DNA of 64,000 nt. Source: Escherichia coli (lineage in GTDB: Bacteria; Pseudomonadota; Gammaproteobacteria; Enterobacterales; Enterobacteriaceae). A program made the position numbers and the translations under genes. Below are positions 1,626 to 59,865 of this stretch, one piece after another (the stretch's first letter is position 1; each line of letters starts with the position of its first letter). Below the pieces are notes generated by a model. That model saw only the letters and a list, made by a program, of their open reading frames with translations. It had not been told where the DNA came from and did not search any database. The stretch is taken from NCBI RefSeq assembly GCF_003790525.1, contig NZ_CP033635.1; one strand, 5' to 3'.

Positions 1626-3467
1626 TTAATCGTCCAGGAAGCTACGCAGCACTTCAGAACGGCTCGGGTGACGCAGTTTGCGCAGCGCCTTCGCTTCGAT
1701 CTGACGGATACGTTCGCGGGTAACGTCGAACTGTTTACCCACTTCTTCCAGCGTGTGGTCGGTGTTCATATCGATACCGAAACGCATACGCAGAACTTTC
1801 GCTTCACGCGCGGTCAGGCCAGCCAGCACGTCGTGCGTTGCCGCACGCAGGCTTTCGGTGGTCGCAGAATCCAGCGGCAGCTCGAGGGTGGTATCCTCGA
1901 TGAAATCCCCCAGATGCGAATCTTCATCATCACCGATCGGCGTTTCCATGGAGATTGGCTCTTTGGCGATCTTCAGCACTTTGCGGATCTTGTCTTCCGG
2001 CATCAGCATACGTTCAGCCAGTTCTTCCGGCGTCGGTTCACGGCCCATCTCTTGCAGCATCTGGCGAGAAATACGGTTGAGTTTGTTGATAGTCTCAATC
2101 ATATGCACCGGAATACGGATGGTGCGCGCCTGATCCGCGATAGAACGGGTGATCGCCTGACGGATCCACCAGGTTGCGTAGGTGGAGAACTTGTAACCAC
2201 GGCGGTATTCGAATTTATCAACCGCTTTCATCAGGCCGATGTTACCTTCCTGAATCAGGTCAAGGAACTGCAAGCCACGGTTGGTGTATTTCTTGGCGAT
2301 AGAAATAACCAGACGTAAGTTCGCTTCAACCATCTCTTTCTTCGCACGGCGGGCTTTTGCTTCACCGATGGACATACGACGGTTGATATCTTTAACCTGC
2401 TCGATGGTCAGGCCGGTTTCTTCTTCAATCTGCTGCAGTTTCTGCAGGGCGCGATGCACTTCTTCAGAGACATCGTGCAGTTTTTCCGACCACGGCTTGT
2501 TCATCGCAATTGCCGCGTTGAACCAGGTATCGCTGGTTTCGTTGCCGGTAAACAGGGTAATGAAGTTTTTCTTCGGCATTTTGCACTGCTCAACGCAGAG
2601 CTTCATGATCAGACGTTCTTGCGTACGAACGCGGTCCATCATGACGCGCATGCTGTTGACCAGGTAGTCAAACTGCTTCGGCACCAGGCGGAACTGTTTA
2701 AATACTTCAGACAGTTTCAGGATCTCTTCCTGAGCAGCAGCGTGACTGCGACCTTTCGCTTTGATGGTGTCACGCGTTACAACGTACTGAGCGCGCAGTT
2801 CCGCAAATTTTTCGCGAGCCAGTTCCGGGTCGATGCTGTTGTCATCATCGGCGCTGTCGTCATCGCCATCTTCTTCGTCTTCATCTTCGTCATCGTCCAG
2901 ATCTTCCTGGGAAAGCTCAGAACCGACGTGAGTGGCGGTAGGTGCCAGATCTTCTTCTGCGTTCGGGTCAACAAAGCCGGTGATCAGATCGGACAGACGC
3001 GCTTCTTCTGCTTCAACACGATCGTACTGTTCCAGCAGATAGGTGATCGCTTCCGGATATTCAGCAACGGAGCATTGAACCTGGTTGATCCCGTCTTCAA
3101 TACGCTTAGCGATGTCAATTTCGCCTTCGCGGGTCAACAGTTCAACGGTGCCCATTTCACGCATGTACATGCGTACCGGGTCAGTCGTGCGCCCGATTTC
3201 AGATTCCACGCTGGAAAGCACCTGCGCGGCGGCTTCGGCAGCATCTTCGTCCGCGGTGTTTTCAGCCAGCATCAGATCATCGGCATCCGGTGCTTCTTCC
3301 ATCACCTGAATGCCCATGTCGTTGATCATTTGGATGATGTCTTCGATCTGATCTGAATCGACGATATCTTCCGGCAGATGGTCATTGACCTCGGCATAGG
3401 TCAGATAGCCTTGCTCCTTACCACGGGTGACAAGAAGTTTCAGCTGTGACTGCGGGTTTTGCTCCAT
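1626..3467 (-). CDS. rpoD: RNA polymerase sigma-70 factor
   Basis: 613-aa ORF, full-length match to E. coli RpoD (acidic region [14 protein letters not shown]; regions 2-4). Confidence 0.98.
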
Positions 3468-3661
3468 AAGACGGTATCCACACTTATTTCATGAGGTTGG
3501 TGTTGGGCGATTGACCCGATGTCCTTCAGCTGTTAACGCTGAAATCCAACGGTTGTTTACCGCCAACGATAATTACGAGGGCGTACTTATATATTTGCCG
3601 CTGCCTCTCAGTGCGGCTGTCGGGGGCTTCCCGATCGCTCTTCGGCACTTAAGCCGTTAAA

Positions 3662-5407
3662 TCACTTTTTCGCCAGCTCCTGGTTTAATGTCCAGAGCTC
3701 CAGGCGTTCTTCGTTGCTTAAACCATGCGTGCGCTCACGAGCGATTAACTCTTCCTGGCGCAGTTCAAGCAGCGAATCAAACATATGGTTGAGTGAGTCG
3801 GTGAAGGTTTGCTCAGCAATATTCTTATCTGCTATATCGTCCCACATCGACAGTTTTTCAAGGGTGGCAGCATTATTTGTACCACGATAGTGCTCTAAAA
3901 GTTGCCCGGTGGTCAGACCTGGCTGGGAGAGACAAGTGTTGACCAGTTCTCTGAATAAGCCAAGTCCAGGGAGCTTATTTTCATCCAGATTCTCAAGCGG
4001 CGGGACCAACGTCGCTAATTCTGGATTTTGCACCAGCAACCCTATAAGTATACGCATGGTCGTGCGTTTTAGCTGCGGAACAGGGCGAGAAACGCCGCTC
4101 TCTGCCGCTTTTGGCATTAATCGTTCAAGCTGGCTGTCATCAAGTATGCCTAATTTGTTGCCTAATTCCTGACGAAGATATATTCGCAGCGTTTCGCCCG
4201 GCACTTGCGATATCAATGGCAGTGCCAGCGTACTCAAACGTGCGCGCCCGTCAGGGGTACTCAGATCAACTTGCGGCATCAGACTGTTAAACAGAAATGC
4301 GGAGAGTGGCATCGCCTGCTCCATCCGCGCTTCAAACGCTTCTTTACCTTCTTTTCGTACCAGCGTGTCAGGGTCTTCGCCATCAGGCAAAAACATAAAG
4401 CGTAGCTGACGACCGTCTGTCATGTAAGGCAGCGCCGTTTCCAGCGCTCGCCAGGCGGCATCGCGGCCTGCACGGTCGCCGTCATAACAGCAAATGACAT
4501 TGTTGGTCGCGCGGAACAACAGTTGTATGTGATCGGCAGTGGTTGACGTACCTAACGACGCAACGGCGTAATTAATGCCGTATTGCGCCAGCGCCACCAC
4601 GTCCATATAGCCTTCGACCACAAGCAGACGATTGGGTTCAGCGTTATCCTGCTGCGCTTCATAAAGACCGTAAAGCTGGCGGCCTTTATGGAAAATGTCC
4701 GTTTCCGGCGAGTTCAGGTATTTGGGGGTATCGTTGCCCAGCACGCGTCCGCCAAAACCAATCACCCGACCGCGTTTATCACGAATGGGGAACATCACCC
4801 GCTCGCGGAAACGGTCGTAACTGCGCCCCTGATCGTTAGTGACCAACATGCCCGCATCAATCAATGACTGGCGATTTTCTGGATTGCCGCCAAACCGCTT
4901 CAGGACGTTGTCCCAGCCAGGGGGGGCAAAACCAATCGCAAAGCGGGCGATAACCTCGTGGCTTAATCCGCGTTTTTCCAGATACTGGCGCGCAGACGTG
5001 GCAACAGGTTGCTGTAAAGATTGTTGGTAAAACGTATTCAGACCGTCCATCAACTGATAAAGCGTTTGTCGTTGATGGCGCTCGATCTGGCTGGGGCCGC
5101 TACCTGCTTCAAATGGCACTTCAAGATTGTGCATTGCTGCCAGCTCTTCGACCGTTTCGACGAACTCAAGCTTGTCGTAGTTCATCAGGAAGTCGATCGC
5201 GTTGCCGTGCGCGCCACATCCAAAGCAGTGGTAAAACTGTTTCTCACCGTTAACGGTGAATGATGGGGTTTTCTCGTTGTGGAATGGACAACACGCGTGG
5301 AAATTCTTGCCCTGCTTTTTCAGCTTCACACGGGCATCGATCAGATCGACGATGTCAGTGCGTGCCAGCAGATCATTAATGAATACGCGTGGGATTCGTC
5401 CAGCCAT
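3662..5407 (-). CDS. dnaG: DNA primase
   Basis: 581-aa ORF with the zinc-ribbon CCPFHNEKTPSF...CFGCGAHG and a TOPRIM domain; sits in the rpsU-dnaG-rpoD operon. Confidence 0.97.
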   Translation of the reverse strand: MAGRIPRVFINDLLARTDIVDLIDARVKLKKQGKNFHACCPFHNEKTPSFTVNGEKQFYHCFGCGAHGNAIDFLMNYDKLEFVETVEELAAMHNLEVPFEAGSGPSQIERHQRQTLYQLMDGLNTFYQQSLQQPVATSARQYLEKRGLSHEVIARFAIGFAPPGWDNVLKRFGGNPENRQSLIDAGMLVTNDQGRSYDRFRERVMFPIRDKRGRVIGFGGRVLGNDTPKYLNSPETDIFHKGRQLYGLYEAQQDNAEPNRLLVVEGYMDVVALAQYGINYAVASLGTSTTADHIQLLFRATNNVICCYDGDRAGRDAAWRALETALPYMTDGRQLRFMFLPDGEDPDTLVRKEGKEAFEARMEQAMPLSAFLFNSLMPQVDLSTPDGRARLSTLALPLISQVPGETLRIYLRQELGNKLGILDDSQLERLMPKAAESGVSRPVPQLKRTTMRILIGLLVQNPELATLVPPLENLDENKLPGLGLFRELVNTCLSQPGLTTGQLLEHYRGTNNAATLEKLSMWDDIADKNIAEQTFTDSLNHMFDSLLELRQEELIARERTHGLSNEERLELWTLNQELAKK

Positions 5408-5970: not shown

Positions 5971-6984
5971 ATGCGTGTACTGGGTATTGAAACTTCCTGC
6001 GATGAAACCGGCATCGCCATTTACGACGATGAAAAAGGTTTGTTAGCCAACCAATTGTATAGTCAGGTGAAATTGCACGCTGACTACGGCGGCGTCGTGC
6101 CTGAACTGGCCTCCCGCGATCACGTGCGTAAAACCGTACCGTTGATCCAGGAGGCGCTGAAAGAGTCTGGTTTAACGGCAAAAGACATTGATGCTGTGGC
6201 CTATACCGCAGGCCCAGGATTAGTCGGCGCACTGCTGGTTGGCGCGACCGTGGGGCGTTCTCTGGCGTTTGCCTGGGACGTTCCGGCAATCCCGGTACAC
6301 CATATGGAAGGGCATCTGTTAGCGCCGATGCTGGAAGATAACCCACCGGCATTTCCGTTTGTGGCGCTGCTGGTTTCCGGCGGTCATACGCAGTTAATCA
6401 GCGTGACTGGCATTGGTCAGTACGAGCTGCTTGGCGAGTCTATCGATGATGCTGCTGGTGAAGCGTTTGATAAAACCGCGAAGCTGCTGGGGCTGGATTA
6501 TCCTGGCGGGCCATTACTGTCGAAAATGGCGGCTCAGGGTACTGCCGGGCGCTTTGTCTTCCCGCGCCCGATGACCGACCGTCCGGGGCTGGATTTCAGC
6601 TTTTCTGGTCTGAAAACCTTCGCGGCGAACACGATTCGTGACAACGGCACCGACGACCAGACGCGTGCTGATATCGCCCGCGCCTTTGAAGATGCGGTGG
6701 TCGATACGTTGATGATTAAGTGTAAGCGAGCACTGGATCAGACGGGCTTTAAGCGACTGGTAATGGCAGGCGGCGTGAGTGCTAACCGCACGTTACGGGC
6801 GAAGCTGGCTGAAATGATGAAAAAACGCCGTGGCGAAGTGTTCTACGCGCGTCCGGAATTTTGTACTGATAACGGCGCGATGATCGCCTATGCCGGAATG
6901 GTGCGGTTTAAAGCAGGCGCGACGGCGGATCTCGGCGTTAGCGTGCGTCCGCGCTGGCCGCTGGCAGAGTTACCGGCCGCGTAA
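5971..6984 (+). CDS. tsaD: tRNA N6-adenosine threonylcarbamoyltransferase (t6A synthesis)
   Basis: 337-aa [23 protein letters not shown]...; divergent from rpsU as in E. coli. Confidence 0.95.
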
Positions 6985-23576: not shown

Positions 23577-24206
23577 TTACAATATTTGGGGCCAGGGATT
23601 GTTTTCCGCCAAATATCGAGTTGCAGAAAGTCGGCAAATAATTAACACTTTGTCTCCTTTAGTGAAAATTTTTCCTTCTTCAGGCTCCAGTAGTAAATAA
23701 TGTATTTGGCCAAATTGATCGGTGAGTTTTCCTTCGCAGGGATTACCTGAAGTGGCTTGATGACCGGTAATTAACGCCATGCTACCAATATATTCTTCTT
23801 CTGTAATAGCTGAGCTATGATCGCGTGGAATCCAGGGCGCAACTATTTTACCGGTATAATGCACCGCAATAATCGTAAACAGTAAACTGACAGGAACCAC
23901 AAACAGGTTCGAGAGTGGTGATTGCCAGACCATGATGCAGGTATGCTGCAACAGGATGCCAATAAGACCAAAAAAACCAGCCAGTAAGCAAAGAACGACG
24001 AGAGCTGGCAATCTTCCGATATTGAGATAATGAAGTGCCTGGCTAATATGACCTGTGGTTATGGAATCATAATGGTCAAGATGTGCATCAAGTGCACCGG
24101 AGAGCATGTGACCGCAGATAAGCGCAAAAATTTCTAAAAGGCCGATCAACAGTACAAAGGAAATAGCGAAAAGATAAGGGGTGTTATAGTCGGCGAATAA
24201 AATCAT
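23577..24206 (-). CDS. yqiJ: NfeD-like inner-membrane protein, partner of YqiK
   Basis: 209-aa polytopic ORF directly upstream of yqiK. Confidence 0.85.
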
Positions 24207-24474
24207 ATGTCACTCCAATGTCCATTTAGTGACGCAATATTTACTTTGGGATAGTTTCCTTGCTTACATTTGTCTTTGCTAATAATAACACATGTTGGAG
24301 AAGTTCTGGAAGAGAAAGTCTTTTAATATGGTTTTTTATTTTTCACTAAAAAGTGTGATCGGGGACAATATATTTACGCACGTTATGTTTAAAGGCACTA
24401 CACTGATTGGGGAATACTGAAATCAGAAAAAGCATATGGCCTTAAAAGGTATGCGATAACCGGAGGATGTGCTT

Positions 24475-24675
24475 ATGGATCATAGTCTTAATTCTTTAAA
24501 TAATTTCGATTTCCTGGCGCGTAGTTTTGCCAGAATGCACGCAGAAGGTCGCCCGGTCGATATTCTGGCCGTTACTGGTAACATGGATGAAGAACATAGA
24601 ACCTGGTTTTGCGCACGTTATGCCTGGTATTGCCAACAAATGATGCAAACCAGAGAACTTGAATTAGAACACTGA
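24475..24675 (+). CDS. glgS: GlgS (surface composition regulator)
   Basis: 66-aa product [74 protein letters not shown] at 24463-24468. Confidence 0.85.
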
Positions 24676-38110: not shown

Positions 38111-40006
<1,896 letters not shown>

Positions 40007-40024
40007 TAATCCTCCCGCCAGAAG

Positions 40025-40058
40025 AATAAAACATAGCCCGGTATACAAGTGTATACCG
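40025..40058 (+). terminator. parE rho-independent terminator
   Basis: agcccggtatac-aagt-gtataccgggct followed by TTTTTT. Confidence 0.75.
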
Positions 40059-40069
40059 GGCTTTTTTGA

Positions 40070-42211
40070 TCAAAATTCCATTTTCACCGTGAATTGCACT
40101 TCACGAGGATCGCCAATCTGGTTGCCCAGATTATTTGTGGCGATGGAAGAGGTGTAATACGTTTTATCAAACAGGTTTTTGACGTTTAATTGCAGTGTGA
40201 CCGGATACTGCAATTTCATTTTGTATGCGGCGAAGGCATCGGCAACGAAATAGCCTGGCAGATAATAGTCAGCCCCATTGGTTGCCGAACGACGGCTTAC
40301 GCCATGTCCACCACCGCCAAACGTCAGTGTGTTATTGCCAGGCATGTTATGAATGTCATAAGTCAGGAATAGCGAACCGGTATGACGAGGAACATTCGGC
40401 AATGGTTTCCCTGCATAATCAGGATCCTCCAGAACCTTAGCATCGGTATAGCCGTAGCTGGCAATGATATTAATGTTTTCAGTTAATGCTCCCGCAAGGT
40501 CGACTTCTACCCCTCTTGAACGAACACGGCCTGCCGTTTTGGCAATGGTTTCATCACCAACACTTTCGGTATACAACACATTACGTTTATGGATATCAAA
40601 CAGCGCAATATCTGCGGTGATACCATCGAATAGCTCGAATTTTGCCCCGACTTCGTAAGCATTAGATGATTCCGGTGGAAGATCGCCAATGTAGCTGGCA
40701 ATTGACGACTGCGGCATAAATGTTTGCGAATAATTGGCAAATAAGGATACCGATGGCGTCAGTTTGTAGACTAACCCCAGTTTGGGAGTCCATTGTTCAT
40801 CGCGGCTGTCAGTATTGACATTAAAAGGACGGCCTTTACCCGCATACTGCGTGTAATACTGATAGCGGATCCCGGCGACGGCAATCCAGTTATCGGTCAG
40901 ATAGAGTGCGTCCTGTGCATACGCTGAGTAGCTCTCCTGTTTGATCGTCTGATCACTGTCCGACGCCGAAACCGTTGTACATTTGCTGGTATTACCATAA
41001 ACAGGGTTGTAGATATTGAAATCTTTAGCTTTTTTACAGCGAATCATATCTGTACGCAGAAGATCATAATATTCATATGACACCCCACCCAGAATCTCAT
41101 TATAGAATCCGGCAATATCAACATTCCCTTGCAGATCCGCACGAGTAGCATGCATACGCTGGGTAGATCCCTGAGTTGCATCAACACGCCGTGTCAGTGT
41201 TCCTGTCGTTGCATCATACGCGGTAACACGCGCCTGATTATCGCTGTATTTATCCTGGCTGTAGCTGTAATCAAAGCGCGCTGTCCACTGGCTATTGAGA
41301 TGATATTCTGCGTTGAGTTGCGCCAGATCGGACTTTCCATCTGTAATATTAAACGGTTCGTCAAAACGTATTTTTCGATCAACGTTTACGGGCTGTTTCG
41401 TCGTAAGGTCGAAAATCGTTCCACGATCGAACGGAGTTTTATAGTCCCGATGGGAATAGAGCATAGTTACTGTTGCATTATCACCAAACCAGGTGAGTGA
41501 CGGGGCAATAAATGTACTGCGCTCTTTACCGAAGTTTCGCCAGTAATCTTCATCCTGCACTTCCCCGGTAAGGCGATACGCCAGCTGAGTGCCTTCAATG
41601 GGACCTGTGATATCAAGTTGCCCAGTGCCGCCACCAAAACTGGAGGAGGTGGCTGAAACCGAACCATGGAATGTTTTTTCCGGGCGCTTGGTCACGACGT
41701 TAATCAGTCCACCAGGATCGAGAATGCCATACAGCGTGGAGGCCGGACCTTTTAGCACTTCCACACGTTCTGTGGCGGCGTTGAAACTGCGAGGAAGTAC
41801 AGTTCGCAGGCCGTTGGTCATGATGGAGCCATCCCGGTTAGCACCAAACCCACGACGTACAAAGGCGTCCTGAGTTCCGCCTAATGTATTGGTCTGTACC
41901 ACGTTACTGACGTTATAAAGCGCTTCATCCAGCGTCGTCGCATTCTGATTTTCCAGAACCTGATCGCTAACAGTATTGACCACCTGCGGGATATCCAGCA
42001 TCGGCATATCGGTTAATGTCGCCGTGGAAGTGCTCAGAGGTTGATAACCATCGGTTGCCTCAGTTGCGGTATTTGCATCTGCTGTAACAGTGATTGTTTC
42101 GCCATCTTTGGTCGTTACAGAGTCTGTTGCATGAATCATCGGTGCCGCAAAAAGCAGTGAAAAGAGCGCCCGACCTTTGAGTCCTGAGAATGAAGGTGTG
42201 AACATAGCCAT
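40070..42211 (-). CDS. TonB-dependent outer-membrane siderophore receptor (accessory)
   Basis: 713-aa ORF with a signal peptide, TonB box ETITVTA, plug and beta-barrel, and a C-terminal aromatic residue (MEF). Confidence 0.85.
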   Translation of the reverse strand: MAMFTPSFSGLKGRALFSLLFAAPMIHATDSVTTKDGETITVTADANTATEATDGYQPLSTSTATLTDMPMLDIPQVVNTVSDQVLENQNATTLDEALYNVSNVVQTNTLGGTQDAFVRRGFGANRDGSIMTNGLRTVLPRSFNAATERVEVLKGPASTLYGILDPGGLINVVTKRPEKTFHGSVSATSSSFGGGTGQLDITGPIEGTQLAYRLTGEVQDEDYWRNFGKERSTFIAPSLTWFGDNATVTMLYSHRDYKTPFDRGTIFDLTTKQPVNVDRKIRFDEPFNITDGKSDLAQLNAEYHLNSQWTARFDYSYSQDKYSDNQARVTAYDATTGTLTRRVDATQGSTQRMHATRADLQGNVDIAGFYNEILGGVSYEYYDLLRTDMIRCKKAKDFNIYNPVYGNTSKCTTVSASDSDQTIKQESYSAYAQDALYLTDNWIAVAGIRYQYYTQYAGKGRPFNVNTDSRDEQWTPKLGLVYKLTPSVSLFANYSQTFMPQSSIASYIGDLPPESSNAYEVGAKFELFDGITADIALFDIHKRNVLYTESVGDETIAKTAGRVRSRGVEVDLAGALTENINIIASYGYTDAKVLEDPDYAGKPLPNVPRHTGSLFLTYDIHNMPGNNTLTFGGGGHGVSRRSATNGADYYLPGYFVADAFAAYKMKLQYPVTLQLNVKNLFDKTYYTSSIATNNLGNQIGDPREVQFTVKMEF

Positions 42212-42311
42212 TTAGTCTGTTATCCCAAAAACTCGCGGATTGTCGCGAGTGAAAATTGTTTCTTATTGCTCACTAAGCACTATCCGTTTGTTATTTCGCC
42301 ATCGGATATGT

Positions 42312-42330
42312 AATTGAGAATCATTCAATC
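42312..42330. promoter_or_regulatory. Candidate Fur box in the divergent receptor/ABC promoter region
   Basis: aattGAGAATCATTCaatc partially matches the GATAATGATAATCATTATC consensus (about 12 of 19). Confidence 0.25.
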
Positions 42331-42584
42331 ACGCAGTAATGTAGTAGTAAATGAGAAATAACAAAAAATTGCTACATGTGTTTTTATGAAAAGTTTATAC
42401 AATTTGATTGCTTTTAATTTATTGATATTTAATGGTTTTGTTTTTATGTGCAAAAATATTTTACCTGTTATTTACCTTGTTTTTGTGTGGCTTTTAACTG
42501 CTTGACTACTACATTTTGTGGCGTCAAACTCTCAAAGGAGAATGAGTTTTATTTTTGTTTGTCTTTGATTAAGTTGGCGTACAC

Positions 42585-43394
42585 GTGGCACATAACGCAA
42601 AAGGGCAGGGGCTGATCCTCGACAATGTTTCTGCCGGGTATCACAAGAAAATCATTGTTGATGGTGTTTCTTTCTCCGTTCCCACAGAAAAAATGACCGT
42701 TCTGGTTGGGGCAAACGGCTGTGGAAAGTCGACGCTGCTCAGCACCATTGCTCGTATCTTGCAACCCATGGGCGGTTCGATATTGCTGGATGGTAAAGCG
42801 ATTCACGAGCAACCAACGAAAGCGTTATCCCGTAGACTTGGGATCTTGCCGCAGTCGCCATTATTGCCGGAGGGCTTAACCGTTTATGAACTGGTGTCGC
42901 GTGGGCGTTTTCCCTGGCAGAATTTCATTCGTCAATGGAGCGACGCCGATGAGCTGGCGGTAGAAGAGGCCCTGAAATTAACGGGTACGCAGGAGTTTGC
43001 ACATTTACCTGTTGAAAAACTCTCTGGTGGGCAGCGCCAGCGTTGCTGGATTGCGATGGTGTTGGCGCAAAAGACGCCTTATATCCTGCTGGATGAACCC
43101 ACAACCTGGCTTGATTTACGTTATCAGGTTGAAATTCTTGAGTTATTACATGATTTAACGCGTCATCACGGGCGTACAGTCGTCGTGGTGTTGCATGATC
43201 TGAATTTTGCCGTCAATTATGGCGATACGTTGATATTTTTACGCCAGGGGAAAGTGGTGCGTGTGTTGAATGAGGGGGAGCATTGCACGCCTGAGCTGGT
43301 AAAAGCGGTCTTTGACGTTGATGTTCACGCATCAATAAATCCTCTGACGGGAAAGCCGTTCTTCATGCCGTTTCGTGGTGTAGAAAAAGTATGA
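42585..43394 (+). CDS. ABC transporter ATP-binding protein (FecE/FepC-like)
   Basis: Walker A GANGCGKST, signature LSGGQRQR, Walker B ILLDEP; GTG start with a weak SD. Confidence 0.85.
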   Translation: MAHNAKGQGLILDNVSAGYHKKIIVDGVSFSVPTEKMTVLVGANGCGKSTLLSTIARILQPMGGSILLDGKAIHEQPTKALSRRLGILPQSPLLPEGLTVYELVSRGRFPWQNFIRQWSDADELAVEEALKLTGTQEFAHLPVEKLSGGQRQRCWIAMVLAQKTPYILLDEPTTWLDLRYQVEILELLHDLTRHHGRTVVVVLHDLNFAVNYGDTLIFLRQGKVVRVLNEGEHCTPELVKAVFDVDVHASINPLTGKPFFMPFRGVEKV

Positions 43395-44374
43395 TGCGCA
43401 CAGGGCTGGTTACTGTAATTTTCCTCGCCTTACTGCTGGTGGGATGCGTGGTATATCCAGGGATTGGTGCCCGATTTATTGCACCACAAACGGTGTTGCA
43501 GGCATTTCTTCATTTTGATCCGCAAAACTTCGATCACAACGTAATTGTAAGACTCCGTTTGCCGCGTTTAGCGGCAGCATTGCTTACCGGTGCTTCTCTT
43601 GGAGTTGCTGGTGCTTTGTTGCAGGCTGTCATTCGTAACCCATTGGGGGAGCCACATATTTTAGGCTTAAATGCCGGAGCCGCTCTTGCTGTCGTTGCTG
43701 CCAGTGCGCTTGGGCTGGCCTTTCCGGTTGGACGCCCACTGCTGGCATCTACGGGCGGCGCGTTATTGTTCCTGTTGATATTGCTGCTTTCCTCCGCAGG
43801 GCGTTCAGGGTTAACGCCAATGAAAGTTACTTTATGCGGCGTGGCGCTATCGGCGTTCGTGTCCTCAATAACGGCTGCAATCCTGATTCTTGACGAACAA
43901 ACACTGCTGGCGATGCGGACATGGCTAGCAGGTGATTTAGCGGGGCAGGATTGGGCGACGCTGGGTACGTCCGCCTGGTTTTCTCTGGGGGGATTTGTGT
44001 TAGCCCTTTACCTTGCACCCTCCCTTAACATGTTGGCACTGGGCGATCGCATGGCGCAGGGGCTGGGCGTCTCTGTATTCCGCACGCGAACATTCACCCT
44101 GCTTGCGATCGCGTTGCTCTGTGGCGCAGCCGTATCGATTGCTGGCCCCATTGGTTTTGTCGGCCTGCTAGTACCGCAGATTGTCCGGCGTCTGGTATCA
44201 GCGGATCTGCGCGTTCTGCTCCCTCTTTCAGCTTGTGTCGGCGCACTTTTGTTATTACTGGCAGATATTATTGCCCGTACGCTTTTCACACCCCATGAGT
44301 TAGCGACCGGTGTCATGACGGCGTTAGTTGGTGCGCCTGTTTTTGTCATTATGGCGACGAGGATGTTCAAATGA
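43391..44374 (+). CDS. ABC transporter permease, FecCD family
   Basis: 327-aa polytopic ORF; start overlaps the ATPase stop. Confidence 0.85.
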   Translation: MMRTGLVTVIFLALLLVGCVVYPGIGARFIAPQTVLQAFLHFDPQNFDHNVIVRLRLPRLAAALLTGASLGVAGALLQAVIRNPLGEPHILGLNAGAALAVVAASALGLAFPVGRPLLASTGGALLFLLILLLSSAGRSGLTPMKVTLCGVALSAFVSSITAAILILDEQTLLAMRTWLAGDLAGQDWATLGTSAWFSLGGFVLALYLAPSLNMLALGDRMAQGLGVSVFRTRTFTLLAIALLCGAAVSIAGPIGFVGLLVPQIVRRLVSADLRVLLPLSACVGALLLLLADIIARTLFTPHELATGVMTALVGAPVFVIMATRMFK

Positions 44375-45420
44375 GTCGGATAATGAACGTCGGGCTACGC
44401 CCACTACGTGTTGGTAAGTTTTCGACACTGGTACGCCCTAAAAATCTGCTGTTGCTTGGTGGGCTGTTCCTGCTTGCGGTTGGAATACTGATATTCGGTC
44501 TGATGCAGGGTTCTTTCTCTGTTCCGGCATCGGAAGTAGGACGAGCGTTGTTTGCTCCAGAAAACGTAAGCACAGACGCACGTTATATTGTGCAGGATAT
44601 TCGCTTGCCGAGAGTCATCATGGCATTGCTATGCGGGGCCATGTTAGGTATGGCAGGGGCCGCAATGCAATCCATTGCACGTAACGGCCTTGCCGATCCT
44701 GGTTTAATCGGCGTCAAAGAAGGATGTAGCGTGGCTGTGCTGTGGCTGATTTTCCAGTTTCCAATGCTGGGAATGTTCTGGCGTCCAGTGGCTGGTCTTG
44801 CTGGTGGCCTGTTGGTGGCTTTAATCGTGATTTTTTGTGCGCGCGATATTTCCCGCCCGCGATTTGTTCTGATTGGTATTGGTGTTTCCTGGTTTTTCGC
44901 CGCCGGTATCGGTGTATTTATGACCACTGCAGATGTTCGAGATGTACAAACTGCATTGATGTGGTTATCGGGAAGCCTGCATGCAGCTAACTGGATGTTA
45001 GTCGCTATTTCAGCCTGTTGGATGTTGCCAGCCGCTCTTTTATTGCTGTTCACCGCCAGGACGGCGGATATCGCTCTGCTTGGTCATCAGGTTGCAACCG
45101 GGTTAGGGGTGAATAGTTCTCGTCTGGCGTTGTTACGTGTCGCTGCACCCATAATCCTGACAGCCGTCTGCGTTTCGTGTGTTGGTAACATCGGTTTTGT
45201 CGGATTGATAGCACCCCATATATCACGTTTTATTCTACGTGGCGGGCAGACGACATTACTGCTGGGGAGCGCGGTATCGGGGGCGTTGTTAGTTATTCTG
45301 GCGGATAGCATTGGTCGTTTGGCTTTTTTGCCTTTGCAACTGCCTGCCGGAATCATTATCTCACTGATTGGTGGACCATTTTTTTTGCTACTGCTCTGGC
45401 AGCGCAGGAACAGTTTTTAA
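44371..45420 (+). CDS. ABC transporter permease, FecCD family
   Basis: 349-aa polytopic ORF; overlaps the upstream permease by 4 nt. Confidence 0.85.
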   Translation: MSRIMNVGLRPLRVGKFSTLVRPKNLLLLGGLFLLAVGILIFGLMQGSFSVPASEVGRALFAPENVSTDARYIVQDIRLPRVIMALLCGAMLGMAGAAMQSIARNGLADPGLIGVKEGCSVAVLWLIFQFPMLGMFWRPVAGLAGGLLVALIVIFCARDISRPRFVLIGIGVSWFFAAGIGVFMTTADVRDVQTALMWLSGSLHAANWMLVAISACWMLPAALLLLFTARTADIALLGHQVATGLGVNSSRLALLRVAAPIILTAVCVSCVGNIGFVGLIAPHISRFILRGGQTTLLLGSAVSGALLVILADSIGRLAFLPLQLPAGIIISLIGGPFFLLLLWQRRNSF

Positions 45421-45430
45421 CGGGAGTTAT

Positions 45431-46378
45431 ATGCGTTTATTTTTTTCTCTGCTGATACTGTTGTCATTTTTTTCCCGTGCAACAGAACCTGTTCAGGTAT
45501 TTACTGATGATTTAGGGCGCAAAGTCACTGTTCCTGCTCATCCAAAGAGAATTGTCTCTTTACACGATCTTGATATCACTATTCCTCTGATTGAGCTCGG
45601 TGTACCTCCTGTCGCCAGCCACGGGCGAACTCGGCCTGACGGTAGCCATTTCATTCGATCTGGCGCGTTATTGACAGGTGTCGACTTTGATAATTCATCG
45701 ATCGCCTTTATTGGTACCGCTGATATTGATATTGAAGCGATTGTGGCGGCAAAGCCTGACCTGATCATCACAGAACCGACCCGTAATACGCCCATTGAAC
45801 AACTTGAAAAAATTGCGCCCACGGTGAGCATTGATCATCTCAAAGGGGGCGCGCCAGAAATCTATCGCAAGCTGGCAGAACTTACAGGAACGCAGTCGCA
45901 GCTGGCGATACTTGAACGCCGCTATCAGGCACAAATCAATGCGCTGAAGGCGACGCTGGACAGCCAAAAAATAACGGTATCGGTGATTCAGGCAAACCAG
46001 GGAAAAATTAATGTGATGCATAGCTATCATTCGCTGGGGCGGGTATTACGCGATGCTGGTTTTCGTTTTCCGCCGCTGATTGAGAGCATTCCTGAAGGTG
46101 GGCGAATGGATGTGAGCGCGGAGCGTTTACCTGAACTGGATGCCGATTTTGTTTTTGCAACCTGGCGCGGTGACACCGGTGGTAAACCTCAGGATGAGCT
46201 GGCAGCAATGGAAAAAGTCATGCCGGGATGGTGTCAGTTTCTGACTGCCTGTCGTTCCGGGCGTTATGTGCTGATTTCTCGTGAAGAGGCGATTTCTAAC
46301 TCCTTTGCATCTCTGGGGCTGATGGCTGCGCAGATACAATCACAAATTGCAGGGCGACCTCTACCGGAGGATAAATGA
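45431..46378 (+). CDS. Periplasmic substrate-binding protein (FecB/FepB-like, cluster A)
   Basis: Product starting MRLFFSLLILLSFFSRA (signal peptide) at the ATG at 45431, with a GGGAG SD. Confidence 0.8.
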   Translation: MRLFFSLLILLSFFSRATEPVQVFTDDLGRKVTVPAHPKRIVSLHDLDITIPLIELGVPPVASHGRTRPDGSHFIRSGALLTGVDFDNSSIAFIGTADIDIEAIVAAKPDLIITEPTRNTPIEQLEKIAPTVSIDHLKGGAPEIYRKLAELTGTQSQLAILERRYQAQINALKATLDSQKITVSVIQANQGKINVMHSYHSLGRVLRDAGFRFPPLIESIPEGGRMDVSAERLPELDADFVFATWRGDTGGKPQDELAAMEKVMPGWCQFLTACRSGRYVLISREEAISNSFASLGLMAAQIQSQIAGRPLPEDK

Positions 46379-47262
46379 TCCAGAAAGATAAAGCGCGGGT
46401 TGATATTTTTGGTGAGCGTTTTCGCACTCGCGCGAGTCAGTTAACGCCTGGGTTAAGAGTTGTCGCCAGCTACATTAATGAGCATCGTGAAGTGGTACTC
46501 GAGCAAACGGCGATGGAAATTGCGGCCACGTTGAACACTTCCGATGCCACAGTTATCAGGGCTATACAGGCCCTGGGGTTTGCCGGGCTGCGTGATCTGA
46601 AACGCACTCTGGAACAGTGGCTTGGTCCAGCCCTTAGTTCCAGCGAAAAGATGTCTACGACGGTGAGTAACTTGACGAGCGATGTTAACACCGCAATCGA
46701 CTTTGTTCTTGAAGGGCATTTGTATACCTGTAATGTCCTGTCAGAGCCTGAAAACCGCCACGCGCTTGCGCAAGCTGTAGCGTTGTTGGTGCAGGCACGG
46801 CAAGTCGCTATTTTTGGCATTGGCGCTTCGGGTATCCTGGCGGACTATACCGCACGACTATTCAACCGCATAGGTTTGCCTGCCACGGCACTAAACCGTA
46901 CGGGTATTGGCCTTGCCGAGCAACTGATCGCGCTTCAACGTGGCGATGTTCTGATCATGATGGCGCAAAAATCTGCGCACCGGGAAGGGCTGACAACGCT
47001 TCGTGAGGCGAGGCGGCTGGGGATCCCTGTTATTTTGCTGACAAACGCGCTGGATTCACGTTTTAGCAAAGACGCCAGTATCGTGATTCATGTTCCGCGC
47101 GGGGATGAAAAAGGGAAAACGCCGCTACATGGTACGGTATTGTTGTGTCTGGAAATGATTGTCTGGTCGGTAGCTTCCGCAGTGCCGCAGCGTGCGGTTA
47201 AAACCATTAAGCGAATTAACGATTTCCATCGAGGACTGAAAACGGGAAGAAAGAATGGCTAA
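46375..47262 (+). CDS. RpiR/MurR-family transcriptional regulator (HTH plus SIS domain)
   Basis: 295-aa ORF with an N-terminal HTH (TAMEIAATLNTSDATVIRAIQALGFAGLRDLK) and a SIS phosphosugar-binding fold (IFGIGASGILA); overlaps the binding-protein stop. Confidence 0.8.
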   Translation: MIQKDKARVDIFGERFRTRASQLTPGLRVVASYINEHREVVLEQTAMEIAATLNTSDATVIRAIQALGFAGLRDLKRTLEQWLGPALSSSEKMSTTVSNLTSDVNTAIDFVLEGHLYTCNVLSEPENRHALAQAVALLVQARQVAIFGIGASGILADYTARLFNRIGLPATALNRTGIGLAEQLIALQRGDVLIMMAQKSAHREGLTTLREARRLGIPVILLTNALDSRFSKDASIVIHVPRGDEKGKTPLHGTVLLCLEMIVWSVASAVPQRAVKTIKRINDFHRGLKTGRKNG

Positions 47263-47306
47263 TCTGGGCTGAGACCGGTAGCAACACCGGCCTCTTTTCA
47301 GGAATG

Positions 47307-47621
47307 TTAAATCCCCGGTTGCAGGATGCGGATATTCATCTCCAGCACATCGCCTTTTACGGCCTCGCTGTACGCTTTCATGTGCGGGGTCTGCAAGTGC
47401 GCTTCAAGATGCGCGATGCTTTCCCACTGCTCAATCATCACGATAGAATCCGGTGCCATAGACTGGAAACTCACGCCAGCAGCGCAATCCACCATTGGCG
47501 CATAGCCGTGGCAACCTTCTTCTTTCAGTACGGTTGGAACGATTTTAGCAAACTGATCCAACACTGCCTGACGGTGATGTTGACCAGGACGAGTACGGAT
47601 TTCTGCGATTACTGTAATCAT
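47307..47621 (-). CDS. ygiN: Quinol monooxygenase
   Basis: 104-aa ORF MITVIAEIRTRPGQHHRQAVLDQF... (ABM domain). Confidence 0.9.
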   Translation of the reverse strand: MITVIAEIRTRPGQHHRQAVLDQFAKIVPTVLKEEGCHGYAPMVDCAAGVSFQSMAPDSIVMIEQWESIAHLEAHLQTPHMKAYSEAVKGDVLEMNIRILQPGI

Positions 47622-47651: not shown

Positions 47652-48233
47652 TTAACCAAAAATTTCCACAAGATGCTTGCGATATTCTTCAGTATAGCGG
47701 GGAACATCAGGCATTTTTATCACGTCATTAGCGATAAATGTCGGCAGCGGTTCCATGCCAAGGAATTGGTTTGCTTTATGAAACGGCAGGTACACACCGT
47801 CAACACCAACGCCGTGGAAGAACTGATCTTTTTCGGTGAAGGCTTCCATTGGTGCGTTCCAGGTCAGAGAAAGCATATATTTTTTGCCCTGTACCAGGCC
47901 GCCGGAGCCGTATTTTTTCGACGGATCTTTGCGGGTACGACCATCGCTGGCATACAGCGTCCCGTGACCTTCGGTGAATACATCATCAATGTATTTTTTC
48001 ACTGTCCACGGCGCGCCCATCCACCAGCCTGGCATCTGCCAGATCACCACATCAGCCCAGAGAAAGTTTTGTACTTCCGCTTTGACATCGTAGTCGCTGT
48101 CGGCGCGAACGATGCGGACATCATGCCCGAGGTCGCGCAGTGTGCCATCCGCGACTTCGGTCAGGGTGTCGTTCAGTTGACCATTGGAGTGGGCGAATTT
48201 TTTCGCGCCGTTGATAATCAGGATGTTGCTCAT
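47652..48233 (-). CDS. mdaB: NADPH:quinone oxidoreductase
   Basis: 193-aa ORF MSNILIINGAKKFAHSNGQLNDTL... Confidence 0.9.
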   Translation of the reverse strand: MSNILIINGAKKFAHSNGQLNDTLTEVADGTLRDLGHDVRIVRADSDYDVKAEVQNFLWADVVIWQMPGWWMGAPWTVKKYIDDVFTEGHGTLYASDGRTRKDPSKKYGSGGLVQGKKYMLSLTWNAPMEAFTEKDQFFHGVGVDGVYLPFHKANQFLGMEPLPTFIANDVIKMPDVPRYTEEYRKHLVEIFG

Positions 48234-48342
48234 TTTTTAACCTTAAGGTGAGACGTTTGCCGACTATAGTACGTCACAGAGCGGTACGGTGAAATTAGCA
48301 AAATGTGCAAAGTCTTTTGCGAATTTAGCAAAAGTCTTACCC

Positions 48343-49692
48343 TTACCAGCTTACTTTCGCCTCAAATCCACCTTGTTCCGCATTCCCAAACTCAACATTC
48401 ATGTCATGCAGCTTGGCGATTCGCTGGACAATTGAAAGCCCAAGTCCACTGCCGGTAGCGGTTTGTCCGGGTGGGCGATAGAAGCGTTCGCCAATTCTCG
48501 CCAGTGCCTCTGGCGTCACACCGGGGCCGTTATCCTTCACGATGAAATTATCGGCATTCAGCGTGACGTCCACCACGCAGCCCTGTGGACTGTAGCGCAC
48601 GGCGTTATCCAGAAGGTTTCGTACCAACAAACTTAGCAACAGCGGTTGTCCGGTGCGTTTGATGCCGTGGGCATTGAGTGTCAGTCGCACGTCAATTTTC
48701 GCCTGCTGCGCCGTGTGGTAAATATCCATCACCGACGATTGCAGGAGATCTTCAAGCGGGATCTCCGCGACGTCCTGAAGGTTATCCAGTGAGTCCAGCC
48801 GCGATAGCGTGAGCAGTTGATCAACCAGACGAGTAGCGCGATCGATCCCGGAATGTAATTGGAGCAGCGCTTTTTTCCGCGCCTGCGGATCATCGTCAGA
48901 GAGCTGAGCAACTTCGGTTTGCACTTTCAGCGCCGTTAACGGGCTACGAAGTTCGTGAGCTGCGTCGGAGGTAAAGCGTCGTTCACGAACCATCATCGCA
49001 TGTGTGCGGGCGAACAGTTGATTCAACGACTCAACCAGTGGGCGCACTTCGCTGGGTACGCCCGTCGCGTTTAGTGGTTTTTCCGAGTCTGGGTCACGCA
49101 TACGTAGTGCCAGCGCCAGTTTGTTCAGCGGCGCGAGTTCACGACCCAGTAGTACCATCATGATGATTAACATAATCGGCAGTGCGACCAGCCACGGGAT
49201 CAATTGTCCGGCAACAATCGCCAGCGCCATGTCTTCACGGTATTCCCATTCCTGACCAACAACAATGCGATATTTGCCATCAGGTGAGGTCATCCAGACA
49301 AAACGCCATTGATCTTTATCGCCCACCAGTTGCCCGTCAGCAAAACCTTCTCGTTGATAGCTATAAGGAATATCTTCTCCATTATCGCCATCGTTAAGGA
49401 CCATTCTGCCGTCGTGGGTAAAGATGGCAAAGGTCAGCGCATCGTCATCAACATGACCGTGTTTTAATTTATTTGGCGTCTGTGCCATGCGATCCGCCGC
49501 GTTGATTTCGTTGAGATCGAGCGTACTTAACCGTTTGGCAAACAGCATCAGTTGGGTGTCGAACAACTCATCGACGTTATCCGTTGTTTGTTTCCAGGCG
49601 ACAAAGCTGGAAAGCAGCCAGGTCACCGAGGCCAGAATTAAAAAGATTAGCGTTAGCCTGACTCGCAGACTAAGACGTTGGGTAAATTTCAT
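48343..49692 (-). CDS. qseC: Sensor histidine kinase QseC
   Basis: 449-aa ORF with two TM helices, an H-box ([12 protein letters not shown]) and an ATPase domain. Confidence 0.9.
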
Positions 49693-50348
49693 TTCTCACC
49701 TAATGTGTAGCCAATACCATGAACGGTACGAATAAAATCACTGCCGAGTTTGCGTCGCAGATGATGCACATGCACTTCAACGGCATTACTGGTGACCTCT
49801 TCGTCCCAGGTATACAGTTTCTCTTCAATCAGTTTGCGCGGCAGTACCCGACCAGCGTTACGCATCAGTAATTCCAGCAGGGCAAATTCTTTTGGCTTCA
49901 GCGTTAAGGGTTCGCCAGCCAGCGTGGCGATACGTTTGCCGGGGTCGAGCATGACGTTGCCGTGGCGCAGCTCGTTGCTGGCCTGGCCGTTGGTTCGGCG
50001 CATCAGAGCTTCCAGCCTGGCGGCGACTTCTATCAACGCAAAAGGTTTACACAGATAATCGTCAGCTCCCAGACGCAGCCCTTCTACACGTTCCGCCAGC
50101 GCATCGCGCGCGGTCAGGATCAAAACCGGCTCACGCTGACCTTTTTCTCGCCATTCGCGCAAAATATCGCGACCATCCATGCCCGGTAAGGTTAAATCCA
50201 GGATCACCGCATCATAAGGTGCGCTATATAGCGCCTCTTTTCCCTGACGACCTTGTGTAAACCAGTCGACGCTAAAACCCATTTTACTAAGGCCCGTTTT
50301 GATGCCGTCGCCAATCAGCATGTCATCTTCTATCAGTAAAATTCGCAT
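49689..50348 (-). CDS. qseB: Response regulator QseB (OmpR family)
   Basis: 219-aa [18 protein letters not shown]...; overlaps the qseC start. Confidence 0.9.
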
Positions 50349-51427: not shown

Positions 51428-51535
51428 TGAAGAATCTTTACCGGAGTGTGAGCCAAATCACTCGCGATAAGTTTGAGCGAACAATGCCACAGGCGTATTG
51501 TTGTTGGGCTTATAATTTCTCCGGTAAGGAATACC

Positions 51536-58067: not shown

Positions 58068-59414
58068 TCAGGTCGAAAATAATCCTGGCAGCATCAGACT
58101 AAGCTGCGGGAAATAACAAATAATTGCCATTACTACAAACAATGCCAGAAACATCGGCAGTAATGGTTTTATTGCCCTGTCGATACTGACCTTACCAATG
58201 CTGCAACCAACAAACAGAATGGTGCCAACGGGTGGTGTACAAAGGCCAATGGTCAAGTTGAACACCATAATAATACCGAAGTGGATGGGATCTATTCCCA
58301 GATGCTGAGCGATCGGCAGGAAAATAGGCGTAAATATCAGGATCGCCGGTGTGATATCCATAAAGGTACCGACGATCAACAGAATGATATTGATGATAAA
58401 CAGAATAACCCATTTGTTATCCGAAACACTGGTAATCAGTTCGTTGATCAACTCAGGAACATCAGCATTCGTCATGGCCCATGACATCCCCATCGAGCAG
58501 CCTACCAGTAACAGAACAATTGAACTGGTTACTACCGAATCTAACAGAATATCATTGAGCTTCTTAAAAGTGATTTCCCGGTAAATCATCGCCAGGGCTA
58601 AACTATAAATTACCGCAATTGCCGATGCTTCCGTGGGCGTGAATACCCCTGCGATAATACCGCCAATAATGATAAAAATAAGCATCAGGCTGGGAATTGA
58701 TTCGCGGAATACCTGCAAAAATTGATGAAAATTGATACGTTCGGCCACCGGATAATGGTTACGTCGCGCATAAAGTGCCGCCACAAACATTAAAGCAGCA
58801 GCGGTGAGAATGCCTGGCAAGTATCCGGCTAAGAACAACGCAGCAACAGAAGTCCCGCCACTGGCGAGGGAATAAACAATCAACACATTGCTCGGTGGGA
58901 TCATCAGGCCAATGGGGGCAGAGGCAATATTAACCGCTGCTGAAAACGCCGGATCATAGCCCTCTTTTTCTTGCAGTGGTGACATAATTCCACCTACCGC
59001 GGCGGCTGACGCAACGGCTGAACCTGAAATCGCACCAAACAGCGTATTCGCGAGGATATTACAATGAGCCAGTGAGCCAGGAAGACGCCCAACTAATGCT
59101 TGCGCTAGGTTAACCAGTCGTCTGGCTATACCACCGGTATTCATAATGTTTCCGGCTAACACGAAGAAGGGAATGGCTAATAGCGTAAAGCCATCCAGCC
59201 CCACAGTCATCTTTTGCGAAATCACAGAAATGGCGGCATCGGGTGGTAAGGCAGTAATAATAGATAACAGCGAAGAAAGACCAATCGCAAAAGTAATTGG
59301 CACACCGATTGCCAGCATGACGGCAAAACTGCCAAATAAAATTAAGACGGGGTAGATATATTCAAAGTCCATATTTCCCTCGTTAATGAAAATTCCGTTT
59401 ACGATAGTTGTCAA
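58068..59414 (-). CDS. TRAP transporter large permease (DctM family)
   Basis: 448-aa polytopic ORF; the true start may be the internal MDFEYIYP. Confidence 0.85.
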   Translation of the reverse strand: MTTIVNGIFINEGNMDFEYIYPVLILFGSFAVMLAIGVPITFAIGLSSLLSIITALPPDAAISVISQKMTVGLDGFTLLAIPFFVLAGNIMNTGGIARRLVNLAQALVGRLPGSLAHCNILANTLFGAISGSAVASAAAVGGIMSPLQEKEGYDPAFSAAVNIASAPIGLMIPPSNVLIVYSLASGGTSVAALFLAGYLPGILTAAALMFVAALYARRNHYPVAERINFHQFLQVFRESIPSLMLIFIIIGGIIAGVFTPTEASAIAVIYSLALAMIYREITFKKLNDILLDSVVTSSIVLLLVGCSMGMSWAMTNADVPELINELITSVSDNKWVILFIINIILLIVGTFMDITPAILIFTPIFLPIAQHLGIDPIHFGIIMVFNLTIGLCTPPVGTILFVGCSIGKVSIDRAIKPLLPMFLALFVVMAIICYFPQLSLMLPGLFST

Positions 59415-59865
59415 TAATATTCATTACTGAATACCAGACCAGAATAAGTCCACTGACAGGCATAACCCAATATACTTTATCCATTGGCCATTTTAATACT
59501 GGAGAGATTTGTCCAACATGTTGTGCTTTTTCAACAACAATATTCCCGCCATAGATCATGAAAATAACCGCAAAGACCGTAATAATAATTTGGATAAAAC
59601 TGTCAAGCGTCAGAACAGATGCAGCCGGAAGTTTTTGAGCCAACAAATCAATGGCCAGATGTTTTTTTAACCCCGCAGTATATACACCGCCAAGTAAAAT
59701 CATCCACATAAATAAAATCTGGGTGAACTCATCAAGCACAGTGCTGGGAGCGTTAAAAATAAAACGTGCAATAACTTGCTAGGTTACGCAGAACACCATA
59801 ATGGCGAGAATAATGCAGCAACATCCGGCAAGGATCTTATTAAGAATATGAGTGAGTGTTCGCAT
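59383..59865 (-). pseudogene. TRAP transporter small permease (DctQ family) interrupted by an in-frame TAG at codon 29
   Basis: ATG at 59865 with a GGAAG SD, giving MRTLTHILNKILAGCCCIILAIMVFCVT, then TAG (59781-59779), then the frame continues QVIARFIFNAPSTVLDEFTQILFMWMILLGG... to 59383. Confidence 0.6.

Follow-up and report, generated by a model that had tools for sequence, protein, structure and literature searches.

In Escherichia coli K-12 MG1655, the interval between qseC and mdaB measures 696 bp and carries ygiZ (b3027), a gene on the opposite strand that encodes a DUF2645 inner-membrane protein of 110 aa. A study of H-NS-repressed genes placed ygiZ among the loci activated by BglJ-RcsB (PMC3950696). 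The literature that we found on ygiZ was limited to this BglJ-RcsB regulation, sabinene tolerance and hits in screens. We found no paper on ygiZ as a T6SS immunity gene, none on DUF2645 and none on an hcp gene together with qseC and mdaB. Further systems with which the locus can be compared are T6SS effector-immunity pairs. Among these, Tse3/Tge1-Tsi3 and Tge2-Tgi2 involve effectors that are peptidoglycan glycoside hydrolases, and known immunity proteins of the Tgi type are either periplasmic or lipoproteins. The Tlde1/Tae5 pair of Salmonella SPI-6 is reportedly a T6SS cargo effector-immunity module linked to an orphan hcp.

We examined the qseC-mdaB locus in the window, by which we mean the whole 64-kb stretch of E. 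coli DNA that was analysed. Open reading frames and annotation place its genes on the minus strand, in the order qseB (49689-50348), encoding a response regulator, whose stop codon overlaps the start of qseC; qseC (48343-49692), encoding a sensor histidine kinase of 449 aa; mdaB (47652-48233), encoding an NADPH:quinone oxidoreductase of 193 aa; and its downstream partner ygiN (47307-47621), encoding a quinol monooxygenase and annotated as ygiN in both strain SC516 and K-12. The spacer between qseC and mdaB (48234-48342) is exactly 109 bp long and lacks ygiZ. The only ORFs that touch it, mechanical ones of 33-51 aa, extend into the flanking genes (48230-48331 on the minus strand, 48289-48435 and 48303-48458 on the plus strand), in keeping with an earlier note on this DNA that had described a 109-bp gap without an ORF. 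There is nothing unusual about a gene-free spacer of this length, and the question of chance does not arise. Searching the 64-kb window with two YgiZ alleles (tblastn), we detected nothing resembling YgiZ, the best hit having an E-value of 0.7, and no ORF of the DUF2645 family (PF10840) was found between qseC and mdaB.

In K-12 the interval is flanked by these same genes, likewise oriented, and over the 104 bp adjoining mdaB it shows 99% identity to the window. It differs by 592 extra bp at 35% G+C, in place of which pairwise BLAST left only 5 nt in the window (48342-48338). The earlier note had stated that K-12 has ygiZ between qseC and mdaB and that the gene appears to be missing here, and this is borne out by the alignment and by the K-12 interval being several hundred bp long rather than a similarly short gap. 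The five nucleotides read GGGTA on the gene strand (48338-48342, minus strand) and directly follow the qseC stop codon. Because K-12 has its 592 bp and strain HB37 about 1.7 kb at this position, we take GGGTA to mark the insertion point. The extra DNA of K-12 comprises ygiZ, convergent to qseC, together with a terminator-like hairpin and a ygiZ promoter of its own that is activated by BglJ-RcsB. Occupied intervals have a G+C content of 35%; for the window spacer, taken together with 60 bp of flanking sequence per side, the value is 43%. This low G+C content and the appearance of ygiZ in the BglJ-RcsB/H-NS study fit acquired DNA. At its right edge, CGGTGAG-TCAGAGTAAGA, the K-12 insert looks similar to the 3' end, GGTGAGCTGGTCAGAGTAAGA, of the qseC gene of Escherichia sp. 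MOD1-EC7003 (extracts 6400-6426 versus 3870-3897), where qseC is two codons longer. Such a resemblance may reflect a duplicated target of the original insertion; it was not seen at the Citrobacter and Pseudocitrobacter junctions described below.

To determine which state is ancestral, we searched with MdaB in one genome per bacterial species and inspected the best 80 loci of the 349 species that carry it. The spacer measured 102-111 bp in 76 of these 80 Enterobacteriaceae loci. It was 109 bp in E. albertii and in another Escherichia species, 107 bp in two Salmonella subspecies, 108-109 bp in many Citrobacter, 106 bp in Klebsiella and 103-107 bp in Enterobacter, with Kluyvera and Leclercia falling in the same overall range. 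The junction is also almost the same within Escherichia, as the window reads TAA-GGGTA-AGACTTTTGC and E. albertii TAG-CGGTA-AGACTTTTGC. In length, in its conserved block and repeat, and in this junction, the window spacer thus has what is found in unoccupied Enterobacteriaceae spacers, including those of E. coli O157:H7, 536 and SMS-3-5, from which it differs by point differences only; nothing sets it apart. As the short form occupies 76 of the 80 loci as well as 824 of the 5,426 E. coli genomes described below, K-12 represents the derived, inserted state. We are therefore highly confident that the 109-bp spacer is an unoccupied, ancestral-type allele comprising the probable mdaB-ygiN promoter region, and that ygiZ is missing because the window belongs to a lineage without a small AT-rich island that other E. 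coli carry at the same point. The absence of ygiZ should accordingly not be read as a loss. One contig among those with the locus, titled Chryseobacterium sp. 18061, has an Enterobacter-like qseC-mdaB region with a 104-bp spacer and with MdaB and QseC 89% and 67% identical to those of E. coli, and probably comes from a contaminated or mislabelled assembly.

Across 5,426 complete E. coli genomes, the site takes three main forms. A 110-nt probe over the window junction aligned without interruption in 824 genomes (about 15%), including SMS-3-5, 536 and O157:H7. The ygiZ-only interval of the 696-bp K-12 type was present at nearly full length in about 3,330 genomes (about 61%). In a further state, ygiZ is accompanied by hcp and by a gene for a 236-aa hypothetical protein, here called X; the hcp-X segment was found in 1,262 genomes (about 23%), among them ST131 and APEC O18. 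The AT-rich island exists in two forms, an hcp-X-ygiZ cassette and a reduced form with ygiZ only, the latter including K-12. The coding sequence of ygiZ was detectable in 4,600 of the 5,426 genomes. Several strains are very close to the window: SMS-3-5 and about 30 others score equal to the best match over 2.4 kb of the window allele, strain 536 has an identical sequence across the spacer and 60 bp on each side, and SC516 is nearly identical, with five SNPs and one indel over 26 kb. A fourth allele was seen in E. coli LR-28, which has a ygiZ-only interval of 735 bp (extract 1135-1869) that is 89% identical to the K-12 interval and has extra sequence upstream of ygiZ; WP4-S18-ESBL-09 gave a match of the same span. 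This variant indicates that the region upstream of ygiZ is itself variable. In E. coli 2017.20.01CC (NZ_AP027865.1, 698085-699558), a K-12-type interval is broken by an IS1B element.

The full cassette forms an interval of 1,826 bp with the gene order hcp, X and ygiZ, hcp being proximal to mdaB; no part of it is present in the window, where searches with X and Hcp also found no similarity anywhere. The hcp gene (TssD, 159 aa), which lies immediately upstream of X in an operon-like array, matches PF05638 (E-value of 3.5e-20) and TIGR03344 (1.3e-58), and the YgiZ proteins of both K-12 and HB37 match PF10840. The X family is small: its 34 clusters come exclusively from Enterobacterales, and each is annotated as 'hypothetical'. 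In every locus that we inspected, X was part of an hcp-X-DUF2645 triad, in unrelated genomic settings: at qseC-mdaB in E. coli, Citrobacter werkmanii and a Pseudocitrobacter genome, in an island with integrase and transposase genes in Chania, between pagP and eamA in Pectobacterium, on a conjugative-type plasmid in Serratia and beside yfbR in Erwinia. In C. werkmanii (extract 2216-4000) and the Pseudocitrobacter metagenome-assembled genome (2076-4000), the cassette sits between the qseC stop codon and the TTGC...GCAA repeat. Identities to the E. coli cassette in these two genomes are 77% and 69% for Hcp, 74% and 67% for X, and 62% and 43% for YgiZ, against 78% and 68% for the flanking QseC. 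Between E. coli and Citrobacter, YgiZ therefore diverges faster than Hcp and X. A cassette at the same point with divergence like that of its flanks suggests either an ancient polymorphism or a preference for this site, and the presence/absence polymorphism of the islet may be old. Avian pathogenic E. coli also carries hcp2B, but this is not the same orphan hcp, as it belongs to an hcp2B-vgrG2-xmtU/xmtV operon (PMC5874247).

These observations bear on how the window came to have an empty site. The lineage of the window might once have carried ygiZ or the full cassette and then regained the empty allele by homologous recombination, which would leave no scar. The alleles are mixed within and among lineages: 536 has the empty site, ST131 and APEC O18 the full cassette and K-12 ygiZ only, and we take the first three to belong to one phylogroup, B2. 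This scatter makes regain a real possibility. Two other indels, mqsRA and a siderophore island of 7.3 kb, also give the neighbourhood a mosaic character, and the cassette is possibly old at the site, given its identical position in Citrobacter and Pseudocitrobacter. With divergence there resembling that of the flanks, the insertion could date far back, and the empty state could be a reversion in many lineages. Still, the sequence does not require such a history, since the outgroups have a matching spacer and junction, and we consider it unlikely for the window.

A new deletion that removed ygiZ from a K-12-type or cassette-type interval is far less probable. Short GTAA/GTAAG repeats flank the K-12 insert and could in principle mediate such an event. 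Joining the GTAA repeats on either side of the K-12 insert would, however, produce GGTAAGATCAGAC (TAAGATCAGAC...), where the window reads GGTAAGGGTAAGAC (TAAGGGTAAGAC), and the window thus shows no deletion scar of this kind. The window spacer contains no cassette residue or insert-derived bases. Moreover, its five nucleotides are common to E. albertii (there CGGTA), its 109 bp equal the outgroup length, and 824 genomes from several lineages have the identical junction.

The ancestral-type spacer itself is conserved. In an alignment of 78 empty spacers from about ten genera, a 23-nt block, GCAAAAGACTTTGCACATTTTGC (48298-48320, minus strand), is near-invariant, with at least 95% identity in all columns but one, which has 80-95%. 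The spacer also has an inverted repeat, CTTTTGC-N7-GCAAAAG (48314-48334, minus strand). In the predicted fold this makes up the central stem, and the conservation of its TTGC and GCAA cores reaches at least 95% in the 78 spacers. This repeat could be a weak terminator hairpin of qseC or the binding site of a dimeric regulator. Within the region of the 23-nt block there is also a marbox-like sequence, TTTGCACATTTTGCTAATT (48293-48311, minus strand), with two mismatches to AYNGCACNNWNNRYYAAAY; it is a candidate MarA/SoxS/Rob site and abuts a -35-like TTCACC (48288-48293, minus strand). The window contains 14 marbox-like matches where 16.7 are expected, so a match alone is not significant, and the putative assignment upstream of mdaB is based on conservation together with the two-mismatch match. 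In the literature, mdaB has been described as a member of the mar regulon (PMC2989944). A -10-like TACTAT (48266-48271, minus strand) lies 16 nt downstream of TTCACC, with its GTA..AT positions conserved in the 78 spacers, and would complete a candidate mdaB promoter; a Shine-Dalgarno sequence follows these two elements. The conserved spacer thus probably represents the promoter and regulatory region of mdaB-ygiN, and would be intact in all three alleles. In the empty allele, qseBC and mdaB-ygiN stand head-to-tail, 109 bp apart. As K-12 has a convergent gene and a hairpin in between, regulation by read-through may differ between the alleles.

The same features could instead be taken to mean that the spacer encodes a small protein or sRNA of its own in place of ygiZ, as the mechanical ORFs overlap it and a 7-bp hairpin can form. 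This is very improbable. Those ORFs run on into the flanking genes, a consensus scan called no promoter or terminator inside the spacer (TACTAT went unflagged), and conservation is concentrated in the 23-nt block, which is typical of a regulatory site and not of a reading frame. RNA folding of the whole spacer region also gave a stability no better than that of shuffled sequence (z = -0.26). Finally, an assembly or sequence artefact, or a ygiZ that has moved elsewhere in the genome, can practically be dismissed: we found no support for either, the junction recurs in 824 complete genomes, none of the 64-kb window resembles ygiZ, and the 826 genomes without ygiZ (5,426 - 4,600) tally with the 824 empty junctions, so the gene was not simply relocated. 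The preferred reading remains that of an unoccupied site.

Several other differences were noted in the window. The mqsR-mqsA toxin-antitoxin pair is absent at 51430-51434, where only 5 bp lie between the two blocks that align to K-12; in K-12 it occupies 927 bp between ygiV and ygiS. It is also absent in HB37 and 536 and present in UK_Dog_Liverpool. A 7.3-kb island (40003-47306) separates parE from ygiN in the window, against 51 bp in K-12. It has genes for a TonB-dependent siderophore receptor, an ABC ATPase, two FecCD permeases, a substrate-binding protein and a MurR/RpiR regulator, and also occurs in SC516, HB37, 536 and LR-28. The first FecCD permease gene of this island (ORF 43391-44374) has one extra G at 43987 relative to SC516 and is intact in the window, encoding 327 aa, while the SC516 gene is frameshifted according to its RefSeq annotation. 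A gene for the small permease of a TRAP transporter in SC516 (24084-24566; about 59383-59865 in the window) is annotated in that strain as a pseudogene with an internal stop. In mdaB, one base at a third codon position (47781) differs from SC516. As all top-scoring E. coli genomes score equally and slightly below a perfect match, this change is probably private to the window strain. The MdaB protein predicted from the window is a 100% match to that of E. whittamii.

The nature of protein X determines how the cassette may be understood. X has no hydrophobic leader in its hydropathy profile, and single-sequence and profile searches gave no significant match to Pfam, NCBIfam or PDB sequences. Only structure comparison was informative, and predicted a lytic-transglycosylase/lysozyme fold that resembles the T6SS muramidase Tse3. 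X is thus predicted to have a lysozyme-like fold of the family-1 lytic transglycosylases (SLT, goose-type lysozyme). Three motifs, WIE81(S)GG, G113-S-x-x-x-Q118 and R186-Y-N-R-G190, are invariant or nearly so in 24 homologues, and in our reading they would correspond to the SLT motifs, that is, the catalytic Glu in E-S, G-x-x-Q and Y-N-x-G. One distant relative (P0148) gave a marginal match to SLT (PF01464) over 33 residues, scoring 22.6 bits against a cut-off of 21.3. Since X itself has no Pfam match and only this relative reaches a marginal one, X is best filed as SLT-like and not as a member of PF01464. A profile search retrieved 374 representatives, in which the X domain is found at the C-terminus of proteins that carry RHS repeats, eCIS_core (PF13699), or those plus OmpA/M15-like regions. 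Polymorphic toxin domains are expected to show such fusions.

The most economical reading of hcp-X-ygiZ is that it may encode an Hcp-dependent effector that degrades the cell wall, with YgiZ as its immunity protein, in which case the K-12 ygiZ would be an orphan immunity gene. The gene looks like one because it is always third in a mobile hcp-X-DUF2645 triad in which X has a Tse3-like predicted fold. The peptidoglycan glycoside hydrolase effectors introduced above serve as comparison systems here; X has no significant Pfam or PDB sequence match. Like orphan immunity genes that are kept without their toxin, ygiZ of the K-12 type stands alone. It is intact in 4,582 of the 4,600 genomes that carry it, with a dN/dS of 0.2-0.5, orphan copies included; the immunity function of YgiZ, in turn, is suggested by synteny. 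Two caveats apply. First, the hydropathy profile of YgiZ shows, in our reading, three hydrophobic segments, and a polytopic inner-membrane protein differs from the periplasmic or lipoprotein Tgi proteins and would be unusual as immunity to a peptidoglycan hydrolase. Second, the ygiZ-only allele of K-12 is not a simple deletion of an HB37-type cassette, as this is ruled out by 131 bp upstream of K-12 ygiZ that have no counterpart there; in this segment we found no remnant of hcp or X, as nothing matched at the nucleotide level and the protein comparison gave no E-value below 0.03. On balance, we see about an even chance that the spacer has long served as a docking site for a mobile T6SS islet composed of an orphan hcp, an undescribed family of lysozyme/lytic-transglycosylase-like effectors and a DUF2645 immunity gene, that the K-12 ygiZ was left behind after loss of hcp and the effector, and that strains with an empty site are sensitive.

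For the window strain itself the finding is of low importance, as its site is of the common empty type and its probable mdaB promoter region is intact. The variation at this site is a common presence/absence polymorphism, ordinary rather than a lesion and of a kind already known. It nevertheless corrects a K-12-centred view of the locus, in which ygiZ is an accessory gene, the empty site is the ancestral type and K-12 is derived. If the effector-immunity reading is true, strains with an empty site, such as the window strain, 536, SMS-3-5 and O157:H7, would be sensitive to the effector of ST131- or APEC O18-type strains. With YgiZ as an immunity protein, the three alleles would predict who kills whom among E. 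coli lineages, and this reading would provide a testable function for the orphan K-12 gene ygiZ.
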